Of a stretch of DNA of 11,861 nt, positions 284 through 11,861 are shown one piece after another. A model generated the notes under the pieces. It had not been told where the DNA came from. It did not search any database and was given only the letters and a program-made list of their open reading frames with translations. Position 1 is the stretch's first letter. Each line of letters starts with the position of its first letter. The stretch comes from a virus (lineage: Duplodnaviria; Heunggongvirae; Uroviricota; Caudoviricetes). The stretch lies in the IMG/VR virus record IMGVR_UViG_2585427739_000006. One strand, given 5' to 3'. Position numbers and translations under genes: made by a program.

Positions 284-312
284 CGATTTCTTTATCTCTT
301 ACATCAGACGAG

Positions 313-344
313 CGCCGGTTGCAGAATACCAGTCACAACCGGCG
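313..344. other. Perfect 9-bp inverted repeat (hairpin) between the exonuclease stop and the IS1 end
   Basis: CGCCGGTTG (313..321) pairs with CAACCGGCG (336..344) around a 14-nt loop. No flanking U-tract on either strand, so not a canonical intrinsic terminator. Confidence 0.4.
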
Positions 345-355
345 ACAGTTGAACA

Positions 356-2827
356 TTAAGAATCAGCCTGACTCGGGATCAGTTTTTGCCAGATAACTGA
401 AACGTATTTTGCCTGGTAACGGGCGTCATCAAGTGCATTATGGCGCTCACCTTCGAATGGAATAGCCGTTCTGGCATCGAAGTCTATGGCTTTCCCCAGC
501 TCAACGATTGTGCGTACATCGCGATCGTTGTAGTAACGCCACGGGCAGGGGATCCCCTGCCGTTCGTATGAACGGCGCAAAATCGTGTTGTCGAAGTTGG
601 CTCCATTTCCCCAGACCTGAACAAAAAATTCACCGGAGTTTTCGTCGATAAATTCCCGCAATTGTAACAGTGCATCATCTAACGGGATTTCATCGGTCAT
701 AATGGCAGATTGCGCTTCGCGTGATTGCTTAAGCCACCATTTAATGGTGTTCCGATCAATGACTCCGCCAGCAGTTTCCAGATCGATAGTCTTACTAAAT
801 TCCGGTCCCATATCTCCGGTTTGCGGATCGAAAAATATTGCACCTATTGAGATGATCGGGGCATCAGGATTTTTTCCCATGGTTTCAAGGTCGATCATTA
901 GATGGTCACACGTCCTGCTGGTGGATGTGATTTCGTGATGACCGTTCACCTTAATTGAGTGATCTGCCGTCTCGCCAGTTTCATTATCGCTATTGTGATG
1001 CTGATTGCCGCCAGTGTTCTCCTTGTGTGGATGTTCAGCGCCTTCCATTTCCTCCGGATCATCTTCCTGAACTTCAACCTGATATTCTTCATCGAATGTT
1101 TCTTGATATGTTGCGTCGCCCATCACCGCGCCACAATCAGGGCAGTTGCCGCCGCCGGTCTGACCGCAGGCGGTGCAGACTTTTTCCACTTCCTGTTGCG
1201 CCACTGGTTCAGGCTGTTTCGTTTCTGGCTCGTTTTGTAACGCATTTGTGCTGTTTTGTTCCGCTTTTTGGTAGTTCCGTTCCGATTCATGCTGGTTCTG
1301 GTTCACAGAATCGCGGGTCTGGATCCCCTTAACCCATTTCGGATCATTCGGGTCACTAATCCCTTCAACAAATTCACCACGTGATGCAGCAAGCAACTTA
1401 TCGGCGTCAGGCTGGCTGATATTGGCTGCCTGCATAATTTTGTTTACTTCGTCAGCGGTAACTTTTATCGGCTCTGGTTGTTCTGAATCTTCAGCGGTAT
1501 CTACATTTTGCGGTAAGCCCGTGTATGTGCCATTTTTTCGGGCAAAATATTCTTCTTTTGTGATTTCAGTGGCGCCAGCAGCCAGTGCCTTATCCAGACC
1601 AGAAAGTTTGTTTGCGCGACCGTATTTTTCTCCGTCCTTATCTGCGAAGAGGAAATAGAACGGCCCCTCACGCTCTACAGATGGTTCAGCTTCCGGCGCG
1701 GTTTCATTTTTTGGGATATCAGATACCTCAGTTTCCACTGCATCAGTTTGTGTTTCTGATGACTGGAGAACATCAACAGTGCCCAGGTCTGTTTCTTCAT
1801 TCTCAAACACGCCCTTTGTCGTCAGGTATTCGCAGATATATTTGTTCAGTGCTATGGGATCTTTGTGAATGTCGATCGGACGCTCACGGACAAGGCCAAA
1901 AATAGTCTGGCGGTCGTAGCGAAGGGCATCAGGCTGTTTGCGCATTGATGCCGAGATACGCTTCCAGTCTTCGCGGTCGTTGTCGATAACTTCATTTTTT
2001 GCCCAGCGATGGATGCTGCCGTCAATGTTTCCGGCATCCACATCACCAGGCCAGAGAGCGTAGGCCAGTTCGTCATCCAGTGTTTTCCATGTCTGCTTGT
2101 ATTCGCGATGAATGGCAGCAATGACCAGGCTGATTTTTCCTGTTGAATTTTCAGTGTGCTGTTGATTGACTCTGGCGCGGGCGAGATCAACAACAGACGT
2201 GTATTTTCCGGTTTCCTTGCGTTCACCTTCGCGACGTTTTTTCCAGATGCGCATCTCTGCCTGAATTTCGGGCCATTTAGCACCAGGAATACATTTATGC
2301 TTAACCCACCCAATGGCGTGCAACTTAAGCTCCGGATACATGGCGTTAACTTCTGGCATTTTCATCAACGCTTCAACGATATGTCCGTCGAATGTTGCCA
2401 TGTCTTCCTGCAACAATTCCTGTGCGCTAATAACCATATCAACGGTGATGTTTTCACATGTGTCGAACTTAACCATGACAGCGTTCTGTACTTCAGGGGC
2501 CAGCTTGTCAAAAGTGACGTTCATCGGATCGGATTCAGTCTCAACCGGGACAAAAGAAGCAGACTCCTCATCCCAGCGGTTTTCCTGCATATATTCAGCA
2601 TCCCATGAATCGAGGGCAGGGCGGGGTATGCCAGGTTTATCCTCGCAGACAATAAATTTATAAGCGCAGTCCTGAGCAGCCGGATAATGTTCCAGGAACT
2701 GCCAGTGAAATTTTGCTCGAGCACGGCGTTCGTCGCCAGCTTCAATGGCTGTGGCTACAGCCACAGCGCCTTCTTCCCTTGTTGCCAGTTCGTCAGGAAT
2801 AGCGGCGCAAATAAAGACTTTACTCAT
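356..2827 (-). CDS. Large phage-type exonuclease (823 aa): unknown N-terminal/central region, CxxC-x7-CxxC zinc ribbon, acidic/His-rich linker, C-terminal DEDDh (DnaQ-like) 3'-5' exonuclease domain
   Basis: Uninterrupted 2.47-kb ORF with ATG at 2827 and a GAGG about 10 nt upstream. The last ~185 aa (nt ~359..913) carry Exo I MIDLETMG, Exo II VWGNGANFDNTIL and Exo III HNALDDARY motifs. Zinc ribbon CTACGQTGGGNCPDCG maps to nt 1133..1177. It sits at the position of ydfE downstream of ydfD in the Qin arrangement as I recall it. Confidence 0.8.
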   Translation of the reverse strand: MSKVFICAAIPDELATREEGAVAVATAIEAGDERRARAKFHWQFLEHYPAAQDCAYKFIVCEDKPGIPRPALDSWDAEYMQENRWDEESASFVPVETESDPMNVTFDKLAPEVQNAVMVKFDTCENITVDMVISAQELLQEDMATFDGHIVEALMKMPEVNAMYPELKLHAIGWVKHKCIPGAKWPEIQAEMRIWKKRREGERKETGKYTSVVDLARARVNQQHTENSTGKISLVIAAIHREYKQTWKTLDDELAYALWPGDVDAGNIDGSIHRWAKNEVIDNDREDWKRISASMRKQPDALRYDRQTIFGLVRERPIDIHKDPIALNKYICEYLTTKGVFENEETDLGTVDVLQSSETQTDAVETEVSDIPKNETAPEAEPSVEREGPFYFLFADKDGEKYGRANKLSGLDKALAAGATEITKEEYFARKNGTYTGLPQNVDTAEDSEQPEPIKVTADEVNKIMQAANISQPDADKLLAASRGEFVEGISDPNDPKWVKGIQTRDSVNQNQHESERNYQKAEQNSTNALQNEPETKQPEPVAQQEVEKVCTACGQTGGGNCPDCGAVMGDATYQETFDEEYQVEVQEDDPEEMEGAEHPHKENTGGNQHHNSDNETGETADHSIKVNGHHEITSTSRTCDHLMIDLETMGKNPDAPIISIGAIFFDPQTGDMGPEFSKTIDLETAGGVIDRNTIKWWLKQSREAQSAIMTDEIPLDDALLQLREFIDENSGEFFVQVWGNGANFDNTILRRSYERQGIPCPWRYYNDRDVRTIVELGKAIDFDARTAIPFEGERHNALDDARYQAKYVSVIWQKLIPSQADS

Positions 2828-2920
2828 TTTGTTTTAACCTCATGACAGATTTAAGGATGAACAAATCCCTGCCATTGCTGGCATATAAGAATGAAACCGG
2901 ATATTTATTACGGAACTGTT

Positions 2921-3112
2921 TTAAAGACCTGCCGGGATTTCGATATTATCCTGGTGAATAACTTTATCGACCGGGTAACAGTTACCGGGAATTTTCTGTT
3001 CGGTTGCTGCAGTCATACACTCCTGCATTGTCCTGTGAACACTGACTGCAATATCAACTGGCTCTCCGGAAACAAGAAAAACTGTCAGAACAAGCGCAAA
3101 TGCTGAATTCAT
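2921..3112 (-). CDS. ydfD: YdfD-like small membrane/lysis protein (63 aa) with N-terminal hydrophobic segment
   Basis: ATG at 3112 with AAGGA 8 nt upstream; protein MNSAFALVLTVFLVSGEPVD... matches my recollection of Qin YdfD. Its start overlaps the dicB stop in an ATGA arrangement. The ORF-track start at 3166 lacks a ribosome-binding site. Confidence 0.6.
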   Translation of the reverse strand: MNSAFALVLTVFLVSGEPVDIAVSVHRTMQECMTAATEQKIPGNCYPVDKVIHQDNIEIPAGL

Positions 3113-3297
3113 TGTGCACATCCTTTTGGCATCAGACGTAAACGAGCCAGCATTGAAACAATGCATATTTTATTTAATAGCTCCCGTTCTTGTTTTCTCT
3201 TGTTAATGGCATCTTCAGTAAATACAGGGTTACTGATAGTGACACCAATTTCAAAACAACCTTCAGACGTATTAACGTTTGGTAATAACGTTTTCAT
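3109..3297 (-). CDS. dicB: DicB cell-division inhibitor (62 aa)
   Basis: ATG at 3297 with GAGGA 7 nt upstream; translation MKTLLPNVNTSEGCFEIGVTISNPVFTEDAINKRKQERELLNKICIVSMLARLRLMPKGCAQ matches E. coli K-12 DicB as I recall it. The longer 97-aa ORF-track version has no ribosome-binding site. Confidence 0.75.
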   Translation of the reverse strand: MKTLLPNVNTSEGCFEIGVTISNPVFTEDAINKRKQERELLNKICIVSMLARLRLMPKGCAQ

Positions 3298-3466
3298 TAT
3301 CGCGTCCTCAACAATGAATTTTGTGATGCAGTGCCTGGTGCCTCCAGGTGACGTTAACCAGTTAACAATTAACGCCGGATACAGAGAATCCACCCATAAC
3401 ACTGTTTTTGGTTTTAACTGTTCCGCGTGCGCTTAGCCGCATTCACCGCATCACAAAATTCACTTT

Positions 3467-3524
3467 AAAAACGGCGGCAGAGCAGTCACGGAGTAAAACT
3501 GATACCGCCAAACGTCACCAGAAA
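3467..3524 (-). ncRNA. dicF: DicF small RNA (ftsZ-targeting sRNA of the dicB operon), 53 nt plus 3' U-run
   Basis: Minus-strand sequence TTTCTGGTGACGTTTGGCGGTATCAGTTTTACTCCGTGACTGCTCTGCCGCCG followed by TTTTT. This agrees at 52 of 53 positions with the K-12 DicF sequence as I remember it, and it lies immediately upstream of dicB as in Qin. Confidence 0.75.
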
Positions 3525-3643
3525 ATTGATAACAGAGGGCGTTGCAGCGGGGTTGTCACTTAAGCGTATGGTCAACCTGACAACTCGGTGTCCTCAACGG
3601 GGAAGAAATACCCCCGCCATACTTACCGCCGCGCCATTTCGCG

Positions 3644-3720
3644 GGTTGCCACAACCGGAAGCGCACGGTCGAATTAAATTTAACGACACCGTACAGTGAG
3701 ACGAACTTCGCCGTGCGCTT
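3644..3720 (-). promoter_or_regulatory. Structured untranslated leader upstream of dicF: 10-bp perfect inverted repeat with nested palindromes (candidate RNA processing or regulatory structure)
   Basis: AAGCGCACGG (3659..3668) pairs with CCGTGCGCTT (3711..3720) around a 42-nt loop that itself contains GTCG/CGAC flanking the palindrome TTAAATTTAA (3674..3683). A small GGTTG/CAACC hairpin lies at 3644..3656. No convincing ORF in 3525..3799 on the minus strand. Confidence 0.3.
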
Positions 3721-3799
3721 TCGTGTTGTGTGCCTGCTTTTAACCACGTCAGGCGAGGTGGTATCCTTCTTATTCCGAATAACCAAGAAGGAAATCTAT

Positions 3800-4000
3800 A
3801 TGACTAAAGAAGAATTTGTCTCTTATATTTTTGATAAAACGGTTGAAATGTATGCCGCTACTTACGGGTCCTGTAATCCTCTGAATAAACCAGAGGGGAA
3901 AGATGATTTCGACAAAATTTACCGCTTCTTGGAGGACCGCTATATCAAAAGGTTAGAGGACGCAGGGATCAAATCCCCAGTGAAGTCACCATTGTCCTGA
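3800..4000 (+). CDS. Hypothetical protein, 66 aa, AT-rich gene antisense to the leftward operon
   Basis: ATG at 3800 preceded by AAGGA with a 7-nt spacer; first 100 bp are about 37% GC. No recognisable motif. Its 3' end overlaps the convergent 121-aa gene by 32 bp. Confidence 0.45.
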   Translation: MTKEEFVSYIFDKTVEMYAATYGSCNPLNKPEGKDDFDKIYRFLEDRYIKRLEDAGIKSPVKSPLS

Positions 4001-4334
4001 GAACTTGCAGGACGTCATGATCGTAACTTCCATCCAAACCGCGACGGCAAATTGCTTCTCGTATTACCGGAAGCAGTTCGCTGGAAATCTCGGTGCATAT
4101 TTCACCTGCTAATACGCCTGGCTCAAGTGAGAATATTGGTGAACTTACGGTCTTGGTCTCGACAGTTTCAGAGTCAGTGCCAACATTATAAAGCTCAACG
4201 AAAGCGGTCTTGATTTTCCGGGCCAGATCTTTTGCTGGCTCGCTTGCAATATCTTTCCCGATTTCTCGCAGCACAGAATGCAATGTATGAGCTGCTGTTT
4301 TCTGTACATCAGACGGTAAATCTTTAAATTCCAT
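3969..4334 (-). CDS. Hypothetical protein, 121 aa, at the position where a cI/DicA-type repressor would be expected
   Basis: ATG at 4334 with GAGG 6 nt upstream (the ORF-track start at 4346 has none). No obvious helix-turn-helix. Divergent from the rightward operon across a 212-bp intergenic region. Confidence 0.5.
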   Translation of the reverse strand: MEFKDLPSDVQKTAAHTLHSVLREIGKDIASEPAKDLARKIKTAFVELYNVGTDSETVETKTVSSPIFSLEPGVLAGEICTEISSELLPVIREAICRRGLDGSYDHDVLQVLRTMVTSLGI

Positions 4335-4546
4335 CGTCAGCCTCATCAGTCAGTGTTTCTGGCTAACCAGCAACGCGCGCCAGATTCGGTTTTAAACGTT
4401 TTGCTTTTGGTATATGTCATCGCGGTGAACGTACCGTCCTGGTTGGGGAACACGCCACATACAGGAGGCATCTGGCGGCGAGCTTCTGTATGATCCCAAG
4501 GTTTATGACGAATATCGTAAGACGAAGCGGGCGGGGCGGTTGAACA

Positions 4547-5068
4547 ATGAAAATCACTCCTGAACAGGCTCGTGAGGCTCTGGATGCCTGGATATGTCGA
4601 CCAGGAATGACACAGGAGCAGGCGACGATATTAATCACTGAAGCATTCTGGGCTTTGAAAGAGCGCCCGAACATCGATGTTCAGCGTGTCACAGATGAAG
4701 GTGGCGCGGTTGATCAGCGAGCGCTTGGCGTTAATCGAGTGAAGATATTCGAACGCTGGAAGGCTATCGACACTAGGGATAAGCGTGAAAAGTTCACGGC
4801 GCTAGTGCCTGCAATTATGGAGGCTATCCGGATTAATGATTTCAGGTTGTATCGTGAAATTAGTGACGGAAAAAGCATCACGTACATGATCGCCGGGTTA
4901 AACAAAGAATATGGCGATGTGGTGGAGTCCGGACTGCTTTTTGCTGATCCTGCCGTAGTGGATCGTGAAACTGACGAACTTATAGAAAAAGCAATTGCTT
5001 TCAAACTTGCGTATCGACAGCAATACCAACAAAAAGCTGGATGGAATTATGAGCCTTCTTTTTGCTGA
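4547..5068 (+). CDS. YdaT-like protein (173 aa), possible CII-analogous regulator; first gene of the rightward operon
   Basis: ATG at 4547 directly after an in-frame TGA. The segment ...RWKAIDTRDKREKFTALVPAIMEAIR... resembles what I recall of the Rac/CP-933P YdaT family. Assignment is from memory and tentative. Confidence 0.55.
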   Translation: MKITPEQAREALDAWICRPGMTQEQATILITEAFWALKERPNIDVQRVTDEGGAVDQRALGVNRVKIFERWKAIDTRDKREKFTALVPAIMEAIRINDFRLYREISDGKSITYMIAGLNKEYGDVVESGLLFADPAVVDRETDELIEKAIAFKLAYRQQYQQKAGWNYEPSFC

Positions 5069-6014
5069 ACGCCCACTGGTTATAAACACACAGCTTGCGA
5101 TGAAGATTGGCTTAAATGAAGCCATTGTGTTGCAGCAGTTGCATTACTGGTTGAGAGATACCAATTCCGGCATGGAATGTGATGGTGTTCGCTGGATTTA
5201 CAACACAACGGAACAATGGCTGGAACAGTTCCCATTCTGGTCAGAGTCAACGTTAAAGCGCGCGTTTGCAAGTCTGAAAACGCTGGGGCTTTTGCGTTGT
5301 GAAAAGCTCAATAAATCAAAGCGCGATATGACCAATTTCTACACGATCAACTATGGGAACGAGCTTTTAGATGGTGGCAAATTGAACGAATCCATCGGTT
5401 CAAAATGCGCCGCTCCATCAGGTCAAAATGACACGATGGAAGAGGTCAAAATGAAACGCTCCATTGGTTCAAAACGACCCAATGTCATCGGGTCAAAATG
5501 GCCTGATGATCTTACAGAGAATACAACAGAGATTACTACAGAGAATAAAAACACTTTTCGTCCGGAAGCTTCGCAACCGGACCCGCAGACCGCTGAACAG
5601 GATTTTTTAATCCGGAACCCCGACGCGGTTGTGTTTAGTGCGAAAAAACGCCAGTGGGGTAGCAGGGAGGATTTGGCGTGTGCGCAGTGGATTTGGGGGC
5701 GGATCGTGAACCTTTACGAACAGACTGCCAGCGACGATGGAGAGATCATGCGACCAAAAGAGCCTAACTGGACAGCCTGGGCCAATGACGTGCGCACAAT
5801 GCGGATGCTGGATGGCAGAAGCCACAGACAAATTTGCGAAATGTTTGGTCGGGTACAGCGAGATCCATTCTGGGTAAAAAACATCATGAGCCCGTCAAAA
5901 CTCCGCGAAAAATGGGACGAACTGGTCATCCGCTTGGGACGTTCACCTGTACAGCGTTGTGTGAATCATATTTCTGAACCGGATACAGAAATTCCGCCTG
6001 GTTTCAGGGGATAA
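5049..6014 (+). CDS. Replication initiator, lambda O-like (origin-binding), about 321 aa
   Basis: Long ORF containing the iteron array in its middle, as in lambda O, where ori lies inside the gene. Start is uncertain: ATG 5049 has a weak ribosome-binding site; TTG 4995 and ATG 5100 are alternatives. Overlaps the upstream gene by 20 nt. Confidence 0.7.
   Translation: MSLLFAERPLVINTQLAMKIGLNEAIVLQQLHYWLRDTNSGMECDGVRWIYNTTEQWLEQFPFWSESTLKRAFASLKTLGLLRCEKLNKSKRDMTNFYTINYGNELLDGGKLNESIGSKCAAPSGQNDTMEEVKMKRSIGSKRPNVIGSKWPDDLTENTTEITTENKNTFRPEASQPDPQTAEQDFLIRNPDAVVFSAKKRQWGSREDLACAQWIWGRIVNLYEQTASDDGEIMRPKEPNWTAWANDVRTMRMLDGRSHRQICEMFGRVQRDPFWVKNIMSPSKLREKWDELVIRLGRSPVQRCVNHISEPDTEIPPGFRG
5392..5501. 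repeat. Origin iterons: five direct repeats at 23-24 bp spacing
   Basis: TCCATCGGTTCAAAATG (5392..5408), TCCATCAGGTCAAAATG (5415..5431), AGAGGTCAAAATG (5442..5454), TCCATTGGTTCAAAACG (5461..5477), TCATCGGGTCAAAATG (5486..5501). Core GGT(T)CAAAA(T/C)G ends at 5408, 5431, 5454, 5477 and 5501. Confidence 0.78.
5515..5550. repeat. AT-rich block of three 12-bp direct repeats adjacent to the iterons (candidate DNA-unwinding element of ori)
   Basis: ACAGAGAATACA / ACAGAGATTACT / ACAGAGAATAAA in tandem, immediately after the iteron array. Mirrors the iteron-plus-AT-rich layout of lambdoid origins. Confidence 0.55.
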
Positions 6015-6054
6015 GTGTTGATTTCAGGTCATGAGGTAATTTTAAGGAGGACTT

Positions 6055-6453
6055 GTGGCAAAAGTTTTTACACAGGAAGAGCGGGAAAAAATTAAAGAGC
6101 AGGTGGTCGAACTTGTGCGCCAGAGCGGTCGCGAGACATTACGACAGTTGGAAGCTAAAACAGGTGCGACAAGATATCTGATGAGCATTCTTGCCAGAGA
6201 GCTGGTTGCCAGTGGTTATGTATACAACTCCGGCTACGGGTTATTCCCGTCTGAACAGGCACGAAAGGACTGGCAAAATGCCCGCAAAAAACTCTCTAGG
6301 GCGAAGGTGAAGAAACCCGCTGTGGTTGATCCGGACCTTATCTGGTCACTACCTGATGGAGAAATACGTCGCTACGACAGTCGTCTAAACATAATCTGTC
6401 GCGAGTGCCGGAAGAGCGAAGTTATGCAGCGCATACTGGCATTTTATCAGTGA
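6055..6453 (+). CDS. Hypothetical protein, 132 aa, possibly a winged-helix DNA-binding protein
   Basis: GTG start at 6055 with AAGGAGG at 6044..6050 (short 4-nt spacer). The segment ETLRQLEAKTGATRYLMSILARELVASGYV looks helix-turn-helix-like. No family recognised. Confidence 0.55.
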   Translation: MAKVFTQEEREKIKEQVVELVRQSGRETLRQLEAKTGATRYLMSILARELVASGYVYNSGYGLFPSEQARKDWQNARKKLSRAKVKKPAVVDPDLIWSLPDGEIRRYDSRLNIICRECRKSEVMQRILAFYQ

Positions 6454-6545
6454 AATTTTCGTTATTTATAGACGTAACTAGATTAAAGAGCATTAGTTCA
6501 GATGTGAATTGACATTTTCACGGCACAGGATTGAGCTAGCGTGGT

Positions 6546-6571
6546 TGTCTGCTTTGCGTCAAAAGCAGATA
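6546..6571. other. Hairpin in the 181-bp intergenic region, with a nearby consensus -35 hexamer
   Basis: TCTGCTTT (6548..6555) pairs with AAAGCAGA (6562..6569) around a 6-nt loop, with no U-tract after it. TTGACA lies at 6509..6514 but no good -10 follows at 16-18 bp. Confidence 0.3.
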
Positions 6572-6634
6572 TTACCAGATTTAGACATCTATTCCCGATA
6601 GCCCTGCTCTGATGCCACACTCTGTGCTATTTTC

Positions 6635-7096
6635 ATGACCCCAATAAAAATATTTATGACTATTGCTGATTTCAAACGGCCTAAATTGGAGCTCCCAAAC
6701 GGGGCAAACAAACTACTACTGCACTCTTGCTGTGCTCCATGTTCCGGTGAAGTGATGGAGGCGCTTCAGGCCTCGGGAATCGACTATACCATCTTTTTCT
6801 ACAACCCGAACATTCATCCTCAGAAAGAGTATTTAATTCGTAAGGATGAGAATATTCGCTTTGCTGAACAACACGGCGTGCCATTTATTGATGCTGATTA
6901 CGACACAGACAACTGGTTTGAACGTGCCAAAGGAATGGAATGGGAACCCGAGAGGGGGATCCGTTGTACCATGTGTTTTGACATGCGTTTTGAGCGGACA
7001 GCGCTGTACGCTGCTGAAAATGGTTTCAGTGTGATCAGCAGTTCACTGGGCATTTCACGCTGGAAAAATATGCAGCAGGTTACCGTCACTGGATAA
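6635..7096 (+). CDS. QueH/DUF208-like protein (153 aa), possibly C-terminally truncated
   Basis: Contains [20 protein letters not shown] and [11 protein letters not shown], which match the signature motifs I associate with the DUF208/QueH family. It is shorter than typical QueH and ends at a TAA that is in frame with the next gene. No ribosome-binding site at either candidate ATG (6635, 6656). Confidence 0.5.
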
Positions 7097-9296: not shown

Positions 9297-9356
9297 AATA
9301 AATCCTGTACTTTTGATAGTTGAGAGGTAAGCGTCAACGGAGCACCGTATTGACGC

Positions 9357-10970
9357 TTATTTATTAGTGAGTACTACGTTCCATGGCAGGAGTTCGTCAA
9401 CTCGGTTGGAAGGCCATTCCGGCAGTACGCTCAGGATATGGCGCAGATACGCTTCCGGATCGATACCATTCAACCGGCAGGTGCCGATCAGCCCGTACAA
9501 CAGTGCACCACGCTCGCCGCCGTGATCGCTACCGAAGAACACGTAATTTTTCTTTCCGAGACAGACTGCACGAAGCGCTCTTTCCGCTGTGTTATTGTCC
9601 GCCTCCGCCAGACCGTCATCACAGAAGTTGCACAACGCAACCCAGTGCTTCCTGATATACCGGAACGCATCTCTCAGACGGCATTTTTTCGATAACGTGT
9701 GTTCTTTCTCCTGCATCAGCTTATACAGGGAAGTCAGTAGCGGTTTACTCTGCATTTGCCTGACCGCCAGGCGTTCAGACACCGGCAACCCGCGTATTTC
9801 GTGCTCAATGGCGTACAGTTCGCCGATTAGTTTCAGTGCTTCTTCCGCCGTCGCGCTTTTGGTACTGATATATACATCGTGGATTTTGCGCCGCGCATGA
9901 GCCCAGCATCCTGCTTCCGTCAACGCGCCGCCTTCACGTTCGGCACTGAACAGCCGATCGTAACCTGCGAACGCATCTGCCTGCAGGATACCCCGGAAGG
10001 GACGAAGGTGTTGCTCCGGATGTTTACCCTGATGGTCCGGTGAGTAGGCGAACCAGACCGCCGGAGGTTCTGGCGAACCGGCATTTCGGTCATCCCGGAC
10101 ATACGTCCAGATATATCCTGTTTTCGCCTTCTTCCTGCCCGGTGCCAGTACTTTTACTGGTGTGTCATCAGTGTGAACCTTGCGGGTGTTCATCACATAA
10201 CTGTACAGGGCATCATTCAGCGGCGTCATTAACTGGCAGCACGCATCAACCCAGTTGGAGAGTAAGGCACGGCTCAGTTCGACACCCTGGCGGGCAAAGA
10301 TTTCACTCTGACGATACAGTGGCAGGTGTTCGCAGTATTTTCCCGTTAACACGCGGGCAAGTAACCCCGGGCCCGCGATACCACGCTCTATCGGACGGGA
10401 TGGTGCCGGTGCTTCAACGATGCAGTCACATTTTGTACAGGCTTTTTTTACCCGTTCTGTGCGGATCACTTTCAGGGCGCTGCTCACCAGTTCCAGTTGT
10501 TCTGCGCTGACTTCCCCCAGATAATCCAGCTCACCGCCACACTCCGGGCAACAGCTTTCTTCAGGCTCCAGGCGGTATATTTCACGGGGGAGATGTGCCG
10601 GTAACGGACGACGATGGCGCGACTGTCGCAACTGGCGGGGAACCAGCGGGTCATCCTCACGCCCACTGTAACGATCGCTTTCCTGCTCGCGTTGTTTCAG
10701 CAGGGCTTCAGCCTGTTCAACCTCACGACGCAGTTTTTCAGAACGGGTTCCGAACAGCATCCGGCGCAGTTTTTCTATCTGAGCCCGCAGATGCTCTATT
10801 TCCCGTTCATCTTCTTCGATCTTTTCTTCGGCACGTGCCAGTGCAGAGCGCAGGAAGGCCTCCGTCTCTTCAACCAGACTCAGTTGCTGGTCTTTCTGAC
10901 GGAGGGCTTCAGCCTGCTCAGAGAGCAGCCTTTCCAGCTCAGCGATGCGAATGAGGTATTTCTGACTCAT
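9357..10970 (-). CDS. IS66-family transposase TnpC (537 aa)
   Basis: Long ORF with a coiled-coil/leucine-zipper-like N-terminus, a CxxC...CxxC zinc-finger region (CCPECGG...CTKCDC) and an acidic catalytic core, as in IS66 TnpC. Confidence 0.9.
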   Translation of the reverse strand: MSQKYLIRIAELERLLSEQAEALRQKDQQLSLVEETEAFLRSALARAEEKIEEDEREIEHLRAQIEKLRRMLFGTRSEKLRREVEQAEALLKQREQESDRYSGREDDPLVPRQLRQSRHRRPLPAHLPREIYRLEPEESCCPECGGELDYLGEVSAEQLELVSSALKVIRTERVKKACTKCDCIVEAPAPSRPIERGIAGPGLLARVLTGKYCEHLPLYRQSEIFARQGVELSRALLSNWVDACCQLMTPLNDALYSYVMNTRKVHTDDTPVKVLAPGRKKAKTGYIWTYVRDDRNAGSPEPPAVWFAYSPDHQGKHPEQHLRPFRGILQADAFAGYDRLFSAEREGGALTEAGCWAHARRKIHDVYISTKSATAEEALKLIGELYAIEHEIRGLPVSERLAVRQMQSKPLLTSLYKLMQEKEHTLSKKCRLRDAFRYIRKHWVALCNFCDDGLAEADNNTAERALRAVCLGKKNYVFFGSDHGGERGALLYGLIGTCRLNGIDPEAYLRHILSVLPEWPSNRVDELLPWNVVLTNK

Positions 10971-11000
10971 GGCCGTTTTTATAATGCGGTCAGGAGTTTT

Positions 11001-11351
11001 TTACAACATTGTCAGTGCGTTAAGGCGGGATGTTTTTGGCTGACGCCAGTCCAGCTTATCGAGGAGCATTGCCAGTTGCGAGCGGGTAATGGATATCTTA
11101 CCGTCACGCACCGCAGGCCAGATAAACTGACCTTCCTCAAGGCGTTTGGTGAACAGGCACAGACCATCAGCATCAGCCCACAGGATTTTAATCGTGTCTC
11201 CCCGTCGGCCACGGAAGATAAACAGGTGACCGGAGAAGGGGTTATCATCCAGCACATGCTGTATCTGCTCCCCCAGACCGTTGAAGGATTTACGCATATC
11301 AGTAACGCCGGCAACGAGCCAGATACGGGTACCTGATGGGAGTGAAATCAT
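11001..11351 (-). CDS. IS66-family accessory protein TnpB (Orf2, 116 aa)
   Basis: 116-aa ORF whose ATG (11351) overlaps the tnpA stop as ATGA. The sequence MISLPSGTRIWLVAGVTDMRKSFNGL... is typical of IS66 Orf2. Confidence 0.88.
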   Translation of the reverse strand: MISLPSGTRIWLVAGVTDMRKSFNGLGEQIQHVLDDNPFSGHLFIFRGRRGDTIKILWADADGLCLFTKRLEEGQFIWPAVRDGKISITRSQLAMLLDKLDWRQPKTSRLNALTML

Positions 11352-11785
11352 CGTCCCCTCCCGGTCAGCTCACGGATCAACACCGTGAGCAGCTCTGGTG
11401 AAGGATTTTCCAGCATCATTTTACCGTAATGGAATTCCACATGGCAGGAAGCTGCACAAGCACCTGATAATGCCTCCGGAGCAGGAGCATCTGTAGCACA
11501 GCGCGGGGTGTCGATAAGTTCCACTGGAACCAGAGTCGGAGAGGCCGGAAAAGATTGTGATACTGTAGGGCCTACAATAGTTGGAGGCATTCTACGAGAA
11601 ATACGTCCTTCTCTTTGCCAGAGGCGTAGCCATTTAAAAATCAGGTTGTTATCAACGCCATGTTCCCGGGCCAGTTGTGCAACATTGGCATTTGGTTTCG
11701 AAGCCAGTTCAACCATATGAAGTTTAAATTCATTAGAAAATATCCGGCGGGTTCCGGAGCGCCAGTCTGTAGGTTTATCCATCAA
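11348..11785 (-). CDS. IS66-family TnpA (Orf1, 145 aa), helix-turn-helix protein
   Basis: First ORF of the IS66 operon, starting 76 bp from the window edge; N-terminal helix-turn-helix-like region. Confidence 0.85.
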   Translation of the reverse strand: MMDKPTDWRSGTRRIFSNEFKLHMVELASKPNANVAQLAREHGVDNNLIFKWLRLWQREGRISRRMPPTIVGPTVSQSFPASPTLVPVELIDTPRCATDAPAPEALSGACAASCHVEFHYGKMMLENPSPELLTVLIRELTGRGR

Positions 11786-11861
11786 TAGAACTCCGTCTAA
11801 TTTAGAAGGAGCTCTAATTTAGTCTGCAAGGAGCAGGTGTTACAGACGGCATTGGCTTTAC

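Follow-up and report, generated by a model that had tools for sequence, protein, structure and literature searches.

DicF, a small RNA known since about 1990 and curated in both Rfam and EcoCyc, is represented in the Qin prophage of E. coli K-12 (b1574; RF00039) by the copy that is the closest known entity to the locus analyzed here. In K-12 the dicBF transcript starts at the DicA-repressed promoter dicBp upstream of ydfA, and deletion of dicA leads to a 22-fold derepression (PMC10448788). RNase III cleavage gives a 190-nt species and RNase E the 53-nt DicF, and the same study, in which DicF was found to be processed from the transcript starting upstream of ydfA, found no evidence for another promoter in the operon (PMC10448788). 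One earlier study had proposed a promoter upstream of dicB (noted in PMC10448788); such a promoter would not yield DicF, but the proposal shows that transcription of the region is not fully settled. The 3' end of the 53-nt form results from termination at DicF's own hairpin and U-run, and a 72-nt form is produced by RNase III processing of a read-through transcript (PMC5069750). The 3' part of DicF pairs with the ribosome-binding site of ftsZ and the 5' end with xylR, pykA is a direct target as well, and regulation of all three needs Hfq (PMC5069750). DicF also targets the mRNA of the mannose transporter (PMC10448788).

The lambda pL operon under CI control has an analogous place and logic, being a leftward early operon that carries host-toxic functions beside a divergent repressor/cro immunity region (PMC10448788), but lambda has no DicF. 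The repressor gene dicA has been listed among the essential, variably present phage repressor genes (PMC11481867). In EHEC under low oxygen, DicF acts as an activator of pchA and a repressor of stx2A (review PMC7873438). As that review relays the work of Melson and Kendall (2019), the up to four dicF copies of EHEC O157:H7 belong to the same sRNA family and are carried on lambdoid prophages; nothing in the DNA described below points to an EHEC background of the kind summarized there.

The window, by which we mean the whole stretch of 11,861 nt that was analyzed, contains one copy of DicF. When it was searched from end to end with Rfam cmscan, the sole match at or above a gathering score was to RF00039 (DicF), at 3472-3523 on the minus strand, with 72.5 bits against a gathering score of 48, an E value of 9e-15, and all 52 of the 52 model positions aligned at a posterior probability of 1.00. 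The K-12 dicF gene (53 nt, NC_000913 1649382-1649434) aligned without gaps to 3524..3472 on the minus strand with 52 of 53 bases identical, the only mismatch being a C to G change at position 53, the last base. The 20 nt on the 3' side of dicF, TTTTTAAAGTGAATTTTGTG, are the same in the window and in K-12. The dicF gene, in its G53 allele, thus occupies 3472..3524 on the minus strand, and by direct reading of the sequence it is followed by a run of five T residues (3467..3471, minus strand) that completes the intrinsic terminator after the 3' hairpin. An earlier note on this DNA had singled out 3467-3524, which is the sum of these two elements, describing it as 53 nt nearly identical to K-12 DicF with a U-run behind them, located in the leftward operon immediately before dicB. 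Both the covariance-model search and the K-12 alignment bear this out, as does the position of the dicB ATG at 3297, separated from DicF by 174 nt. In every feature of sequence and structure that was tested the copy belongs to RF00039; it is an already-known sRNA and nothing new in kind.

The minimum-free-energy fold of the window DicF leaves nucleotides 1-15 unpaired and forms a hairpin from nucleotides 16 to 52 (-16.6 kcal/mol, compared with -15.9 kcal/mol for K-12), followed by UUUUU. The molecule is therefore predicted to have the unpaired 5' region, 3' hairpin and U-run of an sRNA with an intrinsic terminator and an Hfq-type 3' end. Our terminator scanner, whose rule allows only shorter hairpin loops, did not pick up this terminator. 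The single base that sets the window copy apart from K-12 lies at the most variable site of the family: in 131 DicF loci, drawn from species-representative genomes, IMG/VR viral contigs and reference loci, position 53 was C in 104, G in 25 and A in two, so that the window allele is the second commonest. The G53 allele is shared by the phage HannyBb and the prophage of E. coli strain IBS28. The predicted duplex with the ftsZ initiation region (K-12 ftsZ, -60 to +30) was alike for the two alleles (-38.5 kcal/mol for C53 and -38.9 kcal/mol for G53), with nucleotide 53 unpaired in it. These RNAduplex energies were used solely to show that the C53G change leaves ftsZ pairing unchanged, the energy itself being unexceptional (32 of 500 shuffles scored equally well or better). 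As modeled, the substitution falls outside the ftsZ pairing, and the nucleotides predicted to be complementary to the ftsZ ribosome-binding site, xylR and pykA are, apart from nucleotide 53, all as in K-12.

Upstream of DicF, a conserved leader (3525..3661, minus strand) together with DicF itself forms the presumed counterpart of the 190-nt precursor that RNase III generates in K-12; its 5' end was placed by length alone. The leader is 98-100% conserved in comparisons with K-12, IBS28 and HannyBb, and it is also conserved over 82 distinct sequences, with a mean column identity of 90%. A single-sequence fold of the minus strand predicts a hairpin at 3659..3720 with a 10-bp stem made of AAGCGCACGG (3720-3711) and CCGTGCGCTT (3668-3659), and the deduced 5' end of the 190-nt species (about 3661) falls within the 3' arm of this hairpin, which is a probable RNase III substrate. 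The stem is conserved, and the changes in it are one-sided and wobble-compatible only. Among the 82 distinct sequences none of the 63 predicted pairs in the leader and hairpin showed compensatory changes (covariation term -0.37), because the sequences are too much alike. The proposed leader and hairpin structure accordingly draws on conservation and thermodynamics. To judge from its sequence, the sRNA gene would be fully competent.

The genes that follow DicF on the minus strand are largely those of K-12. The DicF-dicB spacer (3298..3471, minus strand) is 174 nt long, as in K-12, with two differences from it, and it leads to dicB (3109..3297, minus strand), encoding a 62-aa cell-division inhibitor identical to K-12 DicB (PF05358, 136.8 bits). 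Next is ydfD (2921..3112, minus strand), whose product is a 63-aa lysis protein according to a Pfam DUF1482 match (92 bits) and the ydfD annotation in relatives. The last gene of the leftward block encodes an 823-aa exonuclease and is intact (356..2827, minus strand; PF16473, 225.7 bits), in contrast to ydfE of K-12, a pseudogene disrupted by IS2. With Qin the window therefore shares the DicF sequence except for C53 versus G53, the leader with few substitutions, the T5 tail, the spacer length, and dicB with an identical protein followed by ydfD; the chromosomal neighborhood of Qin, on the rspAB side, is also that of the window's close relatives. Farther upstream the two diverge, since K-12 has ydfA, ydfB and ydfC and the window has a truncated ydfA and an unrelated ORF of 125 aa. 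This ORF (3969..4346, minus strand, from the ORF list) stands where K-12 has ydfB and ydfC and is annotated as hypothetical in relatives, and a Pfam search with it gave no match. The earlier note took DicF as the anchor for identifying the entire operon, which holds for one part of it: homology to K-12 extends from the exonuclease gene to about 3741, but the genes upstream of that point differ from ydfB and ydfC of K-12.

Two further observations concern this block. The DicF-dicB spacer gave a full-length match (3265-3474, minus strand) to the STnc100 model (RF02076), positions 1-206, with an E value of 4e-6; at 34.5 bits it scored below the gathering score of 47, and the spacer was rejected as an STnc100 member. 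The matching region takes in the hairpin CACCUGGAGGCACCAGGCAC, in which one pair is compensated relative to the model. STnc100 and PasD have been described as prophage sRNAs of common origin (2026 preprint 10.64898/2026.05.13.724894), a group to which the spacer may be distantly related. On the opposite strand, inside the leftward operon, lies an antisense ORF of 66 aa (3800-4000, plus strand) that overlaps the 3' end of the 125-aa ORF. It corresponds to the PGAP hypothetical protein WP_000159335.1 of relatives and had no Pfam match, and a weak promoter-like site at 3800-3829 overlaps its start.

DicF is widespread in E. coli. A 261-nt query around DicF found matches in 4581 of 5426 complete E. 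coli genomes, at a median of two places per genome, and the 68-nt DicF core was present in 3947 of the 5426 (about 73%), often in multiple copies and at up to seven places per genome. The exact 68-nt allele of the window occurred in 891 E. coli records. In an exact-pattern scan of 185,579 species representatives, the core turned up in E. coli, E. ruysiae, Shigella flexneri and three MAG bins, the last of which may be mis-binned, and in no other representative. At least 120 viral contigs carry the core, and so do cultured lambdoid phages, e.g. HannyBb and mEp460. The expectation of the earlier note that dicF would escape ORF-based annotation was correct, as neither PGAP nor RefSeq annotated a dicF feature in any of the non-K-12 genomes inspected. 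Among the 116 DicF loci with enough downstream sequence, 70 had no dicB-like start within 600 nt downstream of DicF; in the other 46 the gap between DicF and dicB was always exactly 174 nt. From the 70 loci without a dicB-like start it appears that DicF is often uncoupled from dicB in phage genomes.

The window also departs from its relatives upstream of the 125-aa ORF. HannyBb (PP925841), mEp460 and the IBS28 prophage have 94-99.8% DNA identity to the window over the block from the exonuclease gene through ydfD and dicB to dicF, and in all three the stretch between ydfA and ydaT/cII still holds a repressor/cro pair together with both early promoters. This segment is missing from the window. 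Window positions 284-4462 correspond to IBS28 9357-5179 (99.8% identity) and positions 4460-6460 to IBS28 4341-2341 (99.4%), so that 837 bp of IBS28 (locus L003, 4342-5178) have no counterpart. Pairwise blastn of the window placed the breakpoint at the same position against all three references, K-12, HannyBb and IBS28, and the junction at 4460..4462 consists of a 3-bp microhomology, TAC (GTA in the IBS28 orientation). The 837 bp comprise the 5' 124 nt of a cro/dicC-type gene, the divergent operator region, the entire gene for a 135-aa HTH repressor of the dicA type, the intergenic region between the repressor gene and ydfA, and the first 36 nt of ydfA, and with them both early promoters. In IBS28 the repressor-ydfA intergenic region contains a promoter-like sequence, TTGACG-17-TAAATT, between the operator-like repeats TGAGTTTTCTCA and TGAGAAAACT.

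Two gene remnants meet head to head at the junction, and PGAP annotates both in strains with the same junction. On the minus strand, ydfA (DUF1391; 4346..4471) has lost its 5' end and now reads as a 41-aa ORF with a fortuitous new ATG supplied from the dicC side of the junction; it covers only positions 12-47 of the 48 in the PF07151 profile, and the same 41-aa ORF is called by PGAP in strain 127. On the plus strand, a 34-codon 3' remnant of the cro/dicC-type gene (4459..4563) is a pseudogene, annotated as 'missing N-terminus' in strains 127 and LR-31. A 161-nt probe spanning the junction was matched in 14 of the 5426 complete genomes (10 at 100% and four at 98.1% identity), and either half of the probe alone matched more than 3600 genomes. 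Strains with the junction include 127 (NZ_CP023377), H2 (NZ_CP010163), NT1F25 (NZ_CP075472) and STS73-1-E. As the 14 complete genomes are independent of one another, an assembly artefact was ruled out as the source of the deletion. Judged from these genome comparisons, the deletion is genuine, uncommon and confined to a small group of genomes. The dicA-dicBp control region that K-12 keeps is thus deleted in the window, which in terms of lambda lacks the equivalents of both the pL promoter and the CI repressor, and the operon is without the promoter, operators and repressor that characterize DicA/DicC-controlled dicBF operons. In the deletion lineage dicF, dicB, ydfD and the exonuclease gene are all intact, which is consistent with a recent deletion and also with continued use.

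How such an operon would behave can be considered against the norm of the family as known from K-12. There, the early-left promoter dicBp, under repression by DicA, drives a polycistronic transcript running from ydfA to dicF, dicB and ydfD. RNase III cuts the leader hairpin to give the 190-nt species, and RNase E cuts just 5' of UUUCUGG to release the 53-nt sRNA, which ends where its own hairpin and U-run terminate transcription. Together with Hfq, DicF represses translation by pairing its 3' part with the ribosome-binding site of ftsZ and its 5' part with xylR, and pykA and manX are targets as well. All of these RNA-level determinants appear to be present and unchanged in the window. The microhomology-mediated deletion of 837 bp, however, has taken dicBp along with dicA and the operators and has cut off dicC and ydfA at their 5' ends, leaving an operon with no known promoter. 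Loss of the repressor alone would be lethal or toxic through derepression of DicB and DicF; because dicA holds both in check, deletion of repressor and promoter together would avoid this toxicity and may represent a tolerated route of decay.

We consider it probable (roughly 0.75) that this copy of DicF is transcriptionally silent, or not produced at functional levels, because the K-12 experiments trace DicF to processing of the dicBp transcript and dicBp is deleted here. It is hardly credible that the locus instead resembles dicF by chance, or that it is a decayed relic unable to fold or pair as DicF does: only the lone substitution at position 53 speaks for this, a common polymorphism, and it is set against an E value of 9e-15, a full-length model alignment at posterior probability 1.00 and a hairpin marginally stabler than that of K-12. 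The earlier note had concluded from DicF that the prophage can affect host division (ftsZ) and other DicF targets. Spelled out, this reading has the leftward operon working under repressor control and a functional DicF that, once the prophage is derepressed, would hold down ftsZ translation and act on its other targets. In its favor, dicB and the sRNA with its leader and terminator are intact and essentially as in K-12, and the same architecture works in K-12 and EHEC (PMC5069750, PMC10448788, PMC7873438), but breakpoint mapping showed that the window has no complete dicA-dicBp region upstream of ydfA. With the repressor gene, the operators and the promoter physically removed by the 837-bp deletion there is nothing to derepress, and the conclusion that the prophage can act on ftsZ and other DicF targets does not follow; we regard a working operon of this kind as very unlikely.

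A more plausible alternative to silence, though still an unlikely one, is that DicF is made at a low or conditional level, independently of DicA, from a promoter other than dicBp, whether a cryptic promoter within the 0.9 kb kept upstream, one created at the junction, or read-through. Pervasive transcription is common in bacteria, read-through could come from the upstream minus-strand genes (a lipocalin gene and an IS66-family element), and the deletion occurs in two slightly diverged backgrounds, in both of which all downstream genes and processing signals are intact. A scan of the minus strand from 3400 to 6647 yielded no consensus-type promoter, which counts against residual expression, but the scanner is insensitive: it flagged a site in the segment of IBS28 that the window lacks, yet missed K-12 dicBp, and its negatives carry little weight. 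Upstream of the junction the minus strand runs antisense to ydaT, O and DUF977, where transcription of untranslated RNA would normally be terminated by Rho. The K-12 experiments, moreover, revealed no internal promoter (PMC10448788). It is also conceivable, if rather doubtful, that the joint loss of the repressor and its target promoter was a selected disarming of a toxic prophage operon, which left an intact, promoterless dicF-dicB-ydfD cassette that would either still be transcribed from a DicA-independent promoter so far overlooked or be kept as a reservoir. The occurrence of the same junction in two slightly diverged backgrounds with intact downstream genes is compatible with such retention. 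If the latter were true, the cassette could be reactivated through recombination with an incoming lambdoid phage or by an IS-borne promoter.

Outside the dicF region, several elements were recognized in the window. Positions 1-283, just past the end of the exonuclease gene, hold a C-terminal fragment of an IS1 transposase (PF03400, 163 bits), located where related prophages such as that of strain 127 have the excisionase gene (xis). An ORF for QueH, epoxyqueuosine reductase, at 6635-7096 (plus strand) covers only profile positions 1-126 of 175 and is a partial pseudogene in strain 127. Homology to related prophages stops at 9331, and after the lipocalin gene an IS66-family element extends from about 9332 to 11861 (minus strand), with three ORFs of 145, 116 and 537 aa that match Pfam HTH_Tnp_1, TnpB_IS66 and DDE_Tnp_IS66. 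The IS1 fragment, the truncated QueH gene and the IS66-family element show that the remainder of the window has undergone general prophage decay.

The minus strand of the window at 3472-3524 is thus a genuine and structurally intact dicF, and the Qin-type lambdoid prophage around it, at the rspAB locus, is decayed. As a discovery this has little value, DicF being long known and carried by about three in four complete E. coli genomes, although ORF-based annotation does miss the gene. The locus illustrates that the presence of a regulatory RNA gene is not the same as the RNA acting, for here the sRNA is intact but its operon has lost the sole promoter from which it is known to be supplied. Any inference from dicF about ftsZ or metabolism should first check that the dicA-dicBp region is intact.
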